Part shown: in pieces, positions 24,901-27,292 of the stretch
Layout of the letters: each line of letters starts with the position of its first letter
Position numbering within the stretch: the stretch's first letter is position 1
Assembly (NCBI GenBank): GCA_051362555.1
Contig: CM120646.1
Location: 434,001-498,000 of the forward strand
DNA length: 64,000 nt
Source: Lingula anatina
Lineage: Eukaryota; Animalia; Brachiopoda
Direction of reading: 5' to 3'
The notes under the pieces: model-generated
The model's database searches: none
Told to the model about the DNA's origin: nothing
What the model saw: the letters and a program-made list of their open reading frames with translations, nothing else
Made by a program: the position numbers and the translations under genes

Positions 24901-27292
24901 CTTTAACTTGACTAGAATGGTCCACTTGTCAATATCCCTTTGGACTCAAGATACAGATTTTTGTTTCAAGGAATCATTTCAACAATGTGCCAGATGGACA
25001 AATAAATCCTCAGAGAGCTGGCAACAACATGTTTGCAACTAAGAAATTTCTAAATATATTTTCATTGTTCTGAGATTATTATCCTGCATGAATGGTGCAC
25101 ATGAAAGGGCACCCTCTCTCCCCCAATAATAATAAAAACCCTGATAAAAATGGGTGCTCACATACACTGTTTGTGCAAATACAACACCCAAGTATGTTAA
25201 GCATAAAAAAAAATTTCAATTTTTGGATGGAAAATCTGCAGGCTTGTTTTGAAGCAATTCTGCAGCAAATGGGACAAACCATGTGACCAATTTGCTGCAG
25301 ACTAGCTCTCTATAAACACACAATGTACACTGGAGAGCAAAAGCAACACAACTTAAAATATCACATATCTAATATACTGCAAAATCTGGTTATTAAAAAA
25401 AATTTAAGTGTTAACCGACAATCTGATCATTTTTTTAAGTAAAGTATTAACATATACTCTTTAAGATGTAAAGATAATTCAAATTTAAATTATTTAGTAC
25501 ATGTCCAAAACTATTATGCCATAGAAGAGAATTACATAAAATATTTCAAACAGAGCGTTTTTGGAGATTCAGATTTTCAATGAGAGTTCTAAATATAAAG
25601 CTCTACATAAACCAGATTAAGCAGTAATGTTTGTAGTGTGCTGCCAATGCTCTCATAACACTGTGGAAGACATACACACTGGCGTAGTCTGGTAGCACAC
25701 TTATGTCTGCGTGGATACAGAACTCAAAGTATGAGCAAATAATAGGATGAATAAAAAAGAAATATTAATCTATGAAACTATAACGACTGTTATCTAGACC
25801 AGATAAAAAGGAATGGATTCTCTGAAAGGTGCAGTGCACTAAACAAAATTAAAATTTGACATAATTTGAAAAAGGAAAATTAGGCTGTTTAACTAAAGCC
25901 CATTTACAGGGGAAAAATAAAGAAATAATGTTCACTACATAAAACTAAAAAAACTGAATTTTTCTAAAAAAGACTTAGTCAAAGCATCTATTTGCTAAGT
26001 GTGATAAAAAAGCCATGCTATAAGAAAAAACTTGTGCAGGTCTTCTAGAAAAACAAAAATTTTTAATAAGATCCACAGACAGAAATGTTACACCAAACTA
26101 CACTTCATATATGTCTTCCTATTGTCAACATTCTGCACACCAGGGGGAGCTGTTCTCAGGGAAAGATAGCTGACTAAAGCTTCAAACAAAATCCCCGAGG
26201 AAACAAGATCTCATCTTTAGATACCAGTATTTGGCAAAATTTCTCTAACATCCTTGTTTTTCTTATCTTCACCAGTGTTAATTTCTTTTGTTTAAAATTG
26301 TCTGCAACAAAACAAAACAAAACAAGAACCAAAAGAGAAAAGATGCCAGGCAGAGTGACAAAAGCTGAAATGAGTGAGAACAGAGCCCCCTGGTGTGAAG
26401 AATGCCTGTGCTGTAGCTCTACCTGGAGCCTGGGAGATTTCCAAGTTGAAGATCTTGCTGAGGGCGGCCTGAGCCGCATGCGCCTTGGCAACTTTTTTGT
26501 TTCTCCCCGAACCCTGAAATGTCTCTCCATCCACCGTCACCTCCATAGTGAAGCTCTTAGCGTGGCTCTCTCCCGTTTCAGAGACAAACTCATATTTCAG
26601 TCCTGGCCGCTGCTCGTTAAGAATCATGACGGGATTTTTCCCAGAGGGCTGGGGAGGGATAGGTTTCGGCAGCCCAGACCCATTTAACGAGGCAGGGGCT
26701 GGGTGCATAGCGCCATCTATATTTAGAGCTACCTGTGTTCCATTGCCATTCTGGTTGTCCCCATGCTGCTGGTTGGACTCAAAACTATTGAAGATGAGAT
26801 CAGCATTTTCTGCTGCATCTGACGTAAAATCTGCATTGGTCACCATTTGCTTTCCCATGGCCTGCATTGCCTCTGATGCATTGGGAAACTGGACAAACGA
26901 CCGAAGGGCTTTCTCTGCGGCATTGAGCTTGGCCCTCTTTTTAGTGTTCCCAACACCTTCAAATGCCTGTCCGTTCACCTCCACAGAGATAATGAAGGTG
27001 GGCGCATGCACGGGGCCGCTCTGCGACATCACTTTGTACTGTAGCCCAGGCTTGATTTCATTAAGTTGCATCAAAGCGTTTTTGGGGAGAGGAGGACCTG
27101 ATGTCTTCTTCCTCTTTTTCTTCTTCCCCCCACCATCTAGCTGATCTGGAAATGGCCGCTTTCTGCCTCCTGGCAGCATCTCGATGTCTCCGTCTGAGTC
27201 TTCCTGAGTTGGTATGTCCTCTGCCTGACCTTGTTCTGCTTCTTGACGCTGTTTCTTTATTTCTTCTTCTATGAAATCAGGCTGTGGTTCAC
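21925..27292 (-). CDS. ADARB1: Double-stranded RNA-specific adenosine deaminase ADAR2 (5' partial, about 683 aa seen); exons 27292-26423, 24266-24088, 23786-23426, 23020-22898, 22631-22443, 22253-21925
   Basis: NLS GRKRPF..KKKKRKK; dsRBD1 [37 protein letters not shown]; dsRBD2 [26 protein letters not shown]; deaminase motifs [44 protein letters not shown]-terminus [11 protein letters not shown]. All junctions GT-AG and phase-compatible. The first seen exon starts in phase 1 at an acceptor, so the start exon probably lies further upstream. Confidence 0.96.
26129..26404 (-). repeat. 30-bp intronic inverted repeat (27/30) next to the ADAR2 dsRBD-exon donor
   Basis: Plus 26129-26158 CATTCTGCACACCAGGGGGAGCTGTTCTCA versus reverse complement of 26375-26404 CATTCTTCACACCAGGGGGCTCTGTTCTCA. 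Confidence 0.9.

Follow-up and report, generated by a model that had tools for sequence, protein, structure and literature searches.

Does the inverted repeat directly behind the 5' splice site of the dsRBD exon of Lingula anatina ADAR2 control the expression of this gene, or is it an incidental intronic duplex? The repeat lies in a 64-kb stretch of genomic DNA (the window). From the letters of the window, a sequence-only reading had proposed an independently evolved feedback element, by which binding or editing by ADAR2 would control splicing between the RNA-binding and the catalytic half of its own message.

The identity of the gene is clear. Its top match out of 1530 is the L. anatina ADAR2 (100% identity over 87% of the query), and the Pfam adenosine deaminase domain is found in two exons further downstream of the dsRBD exon (Table 1). 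In the database protein, the residues spanning the junction are SQAP-ALQPVV, so that the donor at 26422 is in use. The window is taken to be another haplotype, because the database proteins differ from it at a few residues. Two of these, at 24107 and 26529 (Q/R and T/M), also set the window apart from nearly all RNA reads and from the contigs of genomic read set X10. The difference at 24107 resembles A-to-G editing, but was rejected as such since it is genomic (X10 contigs).

At its upstream boundary (27293), the dsRBD exon is joined in RNA to two different sequences (runs X12 and X15), neither of which, as recovered from the read ends, has a match inside the window. Alternative 5' exons of ADAR2 thus likely lie far upstream. 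Run X15 also contains short loose read ends within the exon at 26503 (11 nt) and 26613 (8 nt), with four reads each, which are probably library tags.

Table 1. Features of the ADAR2 intron and its surroundings (window coordinates).
Feature	Position	Strand	Evidence
ADAR2 exon with both dsRNA-binding domains	26423..27292	-	Pfam dsrm x2, E 1e-30; RNA cover
5' splice site CAG/GTAGAG	26417..26425	-	RNA joints; 6/9 vs consensus
Intron between dsRBD exon and next exon, 2156 nt, phase 1	24267..26422	-	RNA joints; GT..AG ends
5' arm at intron +19 to +48, extended by two G-U pairs (+17/+18); 53% GC	26375..26406	-	
Spacer, 216 nt, 35% GC, haplotype-variable	26159..26374	-	
Two cryptic acceptor-like sites in the loop, AG ends 26365 (+58) and 26302 (+121)	26302..26374	-	
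Candidate anti-donor, 10-nt complement of the 5' splice site (9 Watson-Crick + 1 U-G)	26346..26355	-	predicted
Hypothetical 35-nt pseudo-exon 26301-26267 with edit-dependent donor behind it	26261..26301	-	predicted
3' arm, the two G-U pairs included; 57% GC	26127..26158	-	
Following ADAR2 exon, coding for the linker and the first part of the deaminase region	24088..24266	-	database protein; RNA joints

The duplex itself had been described accurately. The arms pair exactly at 26404-26375 and 26158-26129, with Watson-Crick pairs at 27 of the 30 positions, and the spacing given as about 215 nt was measured as 216 nt. The mismatches are those claimed, U26398.C26135 and the tandem C26385.U26148/U26384.C26149, all three of which are pyrimidine-pyrimidine, and two G-U pairs (G26405.U26128 and G26406.U26127) indeed lengthen the base. 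The resulting helix of 29 pairs (27 Watson-Crick and 2 G-U) has a predicted energy of -51.0 kcal/mol, and most core pairs have a predicted pair probability of at least 0.96. In the window haplotype it contains no A.C mismatch. The proposed fold of 26100-26460 (minus strand) gave -110.3 kcal/mol (z -3.55), and none of 100 shuffles was as stable. The ungapped stem score of 21 compares to a mean of 10.65 in 60 shuffles of the intron (sd 1.17, maximum 14). Among 31 tiles of the window, the element is the strongest short-range inverted repeat, followed by one with a score of 20 at 59791/59931. The arms are GC-rich against the 34% GC of the intron, and the repeat is present in all three genomic read sets examined. 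At the sequence level, the inverted repeat is real and not a product of chance. A search of 20000-40000 against Rfam yielded two sub-threshold matches, none of them at the element. Two other inverted repeats of similar size are found at 59782-59940 (42 nt, 79%) and 9655-9955 (22 nt, 91%), each single-copy inside the window.

ADAR substrates are imperfect helices of about 20 pairs or more, and the predicted transcribed-strand helix, with its 29 pairs, lies above this size. By a rough estimate, the probability of finding one end of a repeat of this kind no more than 50 nt from an ADAR2 splice site is 3-7%, a figure that is tempered by the fact that scanning picks out such coincidences. The adjacent donor had been called weak. 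Counted as simple matches to the nine positions of the donor consensus CAG/GTAAGT, not with a trained splice model, it scores 6/9 like three of the gene's other four donors (the fourth: 7/9), and is therefore not unusual.

The explanation that currently seems the most probable, held tentatively, is that the duplex is a weakly constrained, incidental intronic ADAR substrate that probably does not control ADAR2 output. The repeat would have a single origin, either a local inverted duplication (template switch) or an old insertion of which the worn ends remain, predating the split of the sampled Lingula lineages. The helix would form on the nascent RNA once arm 2 is transcribed. ADAR would likely bind and occasionally edit it as an ordinary intronic duplex, and the helix would then be removed together with the intron, with weak or no selection acting on it. 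This explanation is preferred because natural variants break pairs and splicing is canonical in all reads across the junction. The further inverted repeats of similar size in the window, and the lack of a match to the arms in the other ADAR-family loci examined, also count in its favor. If it is true, the element is one more intronic double-stranded RNA of little importance. From the interpretation of the sequence-only reading, the plausible ADAR-sized duplex at the donor of the dsRBD exon would then survive, while feedback has found no direct support.

The RNA evidence comes from three runs of three studies, of which about 6, 6 and 25% of the reads were sampled and 134, 91 and 58 were aligned. 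The joint 26423-24266 is found in 11, 4 and 4 reads, so that 19 of 19 junction reads are canonical. No alternative joint at this intron occurs among the joints with at least 3 reads from 2 starts per run, and none of the three runs displays a pile-up of reads at the intron start. Moreover, no single A-to-G change in the arms yields a usable splice site: the edits would give donors of only 2-3/9, or AGs directly behind existing AGs. These results give no direct support to the proposed feedback control of splicing.

Editing was assessed in the same reads. The depth over the intron is 0-1.9, and about 0-1.3 in the arm bins free of exon reads, where a variant call needs 3 reads; in the polyA run X12, no reads cover arm 2. 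In the aligned stretch, there is no strand excess of A-to-G-type sites (T>C versus A>G: 6/8, 8/11 and 14/14). Among the 40 sites listed (depth about 3-24), all eight T>C sites also occur in the X10 genomic contigs, and none is an efficiently edited site in the adjoining exon. The two ADAR2 exons display no sign of strong self-recoding in these samples. Intronic polyadenylation at the ATTAAA of 26067 (one of two such hexamers) was considered as well and rejected, as the polyA run has zero depth over 26016-26239.

Natural variation was compiled from three genomic read sets (X1, X5 and X10), giving 25 variant sites over 26070-26450. The reads were taken as genomic since the runs cover the intron, and haplotypes were assigned, provisionally, from contig depth and overlap. 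The scored span of 26086-26422, minus the repeat at 26300-26334, comprises 302 positions, variants near contig ends being unlisted. Taking all haplotypes together, variation is seen at 3 of the 54 paired positions and at 21 of the 242 intron positions outside the arms (Fisher p 0.33). In X10, the most divergent lineage, 0/54 paired, 1/6 mismatch and 12/242 other positions have changed. This conservation of the paired positions has a p of 0.085 against the local rate and of about 0.02 against the 7.1% (64/903) found in four other pieces of the intron. The arm change in X10 affects the already mismatched 26384 and creates an A.C mismatch. The first 88 intron bases of X10 contain a single difference (p 0.012), and intron starts are generally better conserved.

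Three further alleles alter the helix. In X5 and X1, the 26151 allele converts a U-A pair to a U-G wobble, and the 26157 allele breaks the penultimate pair (C-G to C.A). In X5, the 26393 allele breaks a central pair (C-G to A.G), weakening the predicted helix from -51 to about -39/-40 kcal/mol, and its contig is apparently common to both X5 haplotypes. When the substitutions are modelled without the indels, the variant haplotypes have predicted helices of about -39 to -46 kcal/mol, and the helix is the dominant predicted fold in every haplotype modelled. The spacer also differs between haplotypes, by substitutions, a 16-nt indel and a 3-nt indel. Compensatory changes, which the sequence-only reading had suggested to look for in related species, were sought among the Lingula haplotypes: none is found among the four arm variants (one wobble, two broken pairs, one at a mismatch), a comparison of low power. 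Within this small sample, the variation fits a duplex under weak or no constraint. Several points count against an incidental duplex: X10 keeps 54/54 paired positions, the helix is the dominant predicted fold in all modelled haplotypes, the arms are GC-rich and improbably placed, and an intron at the same position in two other loci (L005 and L006) contains a hairpin, discussed below.

An unlikely, yet serious, alternative is that the helix aids splicing independently of ADAR, by looping out the two cryptic acceptors and freeing the 5' splice site. The acceptors are of good quality, with 14/17 and 13/17 pyrimidines versus 12-14 in five real acceptors of the gene, and in favor of this role only one YAG site in the intron besides that at +58 reaches 14/17. 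Splicing to either of them is predicted to reach a stop codon, and intron retention would do so after 44 intron-encoded residues. The listed RNA joints contain no use of either acceptor. The second half of this alternative concerns the candidate anti-donor in the loop, which is mutually exclusive with the long duplex in predicted nested folds. When folding was modelled step by step from a point 38 or 98 nt inside the exon, the anti-donor helix had P 0.88-1.0 before arm 2 and 0 after it, so that the donor would be buried until arm 2 appears and would then partly open. The conservation of the paired positions in X10 points in the same direction, as does the variant at 26350, which retains a G-U pair within the anti-donor. 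However, the anti-donor helix is largely gone once the fold takes in 198 nt of exon (P 0-0.53), and with 100 further intron bases the donor is mostly paired again. Striking by eye, the anti-donor was rejected as an exceptional feature by the shuffle test (p 0.08 for 100 nt and 0.19 for 300 nt). The tolerated pair-breaking alleles and the lack of covariation likewise argue against an aid to splicing.

Exons with weak sites that are looped out by conserved complementary pairs are a described class (PMC10573301). The Lingula element resembles them in having two intronic arms around acceptor-like sites. Unlike those pairs, which are defined by their conservation across species, the Lingula arms show conservation only within Lingula, without covariation, and no enclosed exon is seen in use. 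The compensatory substitutions typical of conserved pairs are absent here, among few changes and with low power.

It is doubtful that the duplex serves ADAR2 negative feedback of some form. Here, editing or binding would lead to the donor-buried fold or to a donor at 26266, resulting in intron retention or a frameshifting 35-nt exon, and thus in a deaminase-less or degraded message. The position at the dsRBD/deaminase boundary of an ADAR2 gene and the suitable size of the helix agree with such a role, and so do some of the predicted folds. With inosine parameters and all 12 arm adenosines edited, P(anti-donor) rises to 0.50-0.65, and to 0.93-0.96 with two further A.C sites. Against this, the predicted fold stays as it is when one arm (5 or 7 sites) or four sites are edited, with a gap of 13-14 kcal/mol to the donor-buried fold in the window haplotype, and X5 carries a central pair break. 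When A26266 is edited, a 7/9 donor is predicted to arise 35 nt behind the second cryptic acceptor, and this adenosine is predicted to be paired at 0.99 in a stem of a GA-rich stretch with a pyrimidine tract. As six AT sites of the intron would give a 7/9 donor by editing, one in the loop is unremarkable and the pseudo-exon donor is likely due to chance. Its neighborhood also differs between haplotypes. The RNA runs speak against feedback too, with no alternative joint listed and reads that do not accumulate where the intron begins, and so does the failure of arm edits to produce a good splice site.

Self-editing of ADAR transcripts is established elsewhere, which lends feedback some plausibility. 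Self-editing of rat Adar2 creates a 3' acceptor that adds 47 nt (PMC9479739, PMC3553983), Drosophila Adar auto-recodes Ser to Gly (PMC10486299, PMC9479739), squid ADAR transcripts are self-edited (PMC10278661), and auto-editing occurs at a low level in zebrafish (PMC8096273). The Lingula element is like rat Adar2 in that an intronic double-stranded RNA lies near a splice site of an ADAR2 pre-mRNA. The rat edit, however, generates a new acceptor that extends the second coding exon, whereas the Lingula duplex follows a donor, and edits in its arms do not create a frame-shifting splice site. With Drosophila, Lingula shares an ADAR2-type gene; the fly, in contrast, recodes an exonic AGY serine codon, and Lingula has a TCG at 23519-23517. 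This is the codon of the serine in IFSPHE, which we take to be the equivalent of the fly S/G site, and it cannot be recoded in the manner of the fly.

Two further comparisons concern the duplex and its inner stem. Like editing inducer elements (PMC5654063), the Lingula repeat is a long stem within an intron, shortly behind an exon, and a potential recruiter of ADAR; unlike them, it has no efficiently edited exon site among the sites listed. ADAR2 binds a GA-rich/pyrimidine-tract duplex in RELL2 (PMC7005744), and in Lingula the predicted inner stem that contains A26266 is similarly formed by a purine-rich stretch and the pyrimidine tract belonging to a cryptic acceptor. RELL2, however, has a real cassette exon, while the Lingula inner stem varies between haplotypes. 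The likeness to editing inducer elements, looping pairs and RELL2 is one of anatomy only. The element is not described in the literature found on Lingula or brachiopod ADAR, A-to-I editing and invertebrate ADAR2 autoregulation, a set that covers few subscription papers.

For comparison in other animals, nine ADAR-family loci (out of 211 candidates) were taken from one metagenome scan. L001 and L002 are fish-like ADAR2 genes and L008 is more distant; all three have their donor some 15 codons later. At this position L007 lacks an intron, and in L003-L006 and L009 the position of the donor is the same as in Lingula. Conservation in orthologous introns had been named as a check, and the Lingula arm sequence has no match in any of the nine loci. 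When eight intron starts were folded, L005 alone was exceptional (z -5.8), with a stem score of 19, whereas none of 72 control windows reached 17. The underlying hairpin of 25 positions, at about +67 to +141 of the intron, is found in both L005 (1615-1689) and L006 (887-961). These are related invertebrates with the hairpin in the same-position ADAR2 intron, and its sequence is unrelated to the Lingula duplex. Between the two, 5 of 50 arm positions differ versus 6 of 17 in the loop, and the five affected pairs comprise two wobbles and three breaks. The hairpin may represent either a convergent ADAR2 element or a repeat, and is at most a hint of convergence with the Lingula duplex. Two other candidates were rejected: the L004 intron has a duplex of 16 bp (score 13), which is equalled in 4 of 15 control windows and absent from L003, and L005 has a helix pairing with the donor (p 0.007, one of 26 tests), which its close relative L006 lacks. 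In L009, a short GC-rich hairpin near the donor (about +31 to +63), in a region that is unexceptional (z -1.0), presumably resembles a common mollusc repeat.

Improbable, on the whole, is the most specific form of regulation, an independently evolved, riboswitch-like splice switch in which the helix would act as an anti-anti-donor, keeping the 5' splice site accessible. Abundant ADAR2 would edit and loosen the helix, and the donor would be buried by its complement at +68 to +77. Alternatively, the new donor at 26266 would be created, and in both cases a retained or frameshifted, deaminase-less message would result. The hairpin of L005 and L006 would then represent a convergent case. If this is true, ADAR2 homeostasis would have a third independent solution, next to the acceptor edit of the rat and the S/G recoding of the fly, and one that acts at the 5' splice site in a lineage without an editable site of the fly type.

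The weakest alternative, that the arms are the terminal inverted repeats of a MITE, is improbable: the size and anatomy of a 276-bp element with an AT-rich interior and the further MITE-like repeats within the window would suit it, but the 4, 8 and 7 contigs obtained from the three genomic read sets can all be explained by the locus's own haplotypes, no loose contig end occurs at the arm borders (the single loose end lies at an indel in the loop), the window contains no second copy of the arms, and there is no target duplication, as had been stated (none above 2 nt within a 3-nt shift). The search covered these read sets and the window at a threshold of 80% likeness. A multicopy MITE family, which the sequence-only reading had given as grounds for refutation, is largely excluded at this threshold. 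With arms that are 10% apart, sister copies would be expected to be about 90% alike, so that a young family should have come to light, and in the same kind of comparison contigs below 90% likeness did align elsewhere. A young MITE thus appears unlikely and the element is apparently single-copy; an old family with copies less than 80% alike would escape the threshold. A 12-nt core of the arms has 10 matches at 2 mismatches versus 2.2 expected. These were rejected as further copies, as BLASTN extends none besides the two arms, and were put down to G-runs.

The window contains several other features. At 2688-4363 lies a Tc1/mariner-like element with 36-nt inverted repeats 1.6 kb apart and a DDE_3 transposase fragment between them. 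A long open frame on the forward strand (8350-9216) encodes a hydrophobic, multi-pass membrane-like protein without a Pfam match. Tail to tail with ADAR2, at about 13700-17100 of the forward strand, is a gene that contains a domain of the linker-histone H1/H5 type (15401-15649, E 3e-06) and long acidic/basic low-complexity frames.
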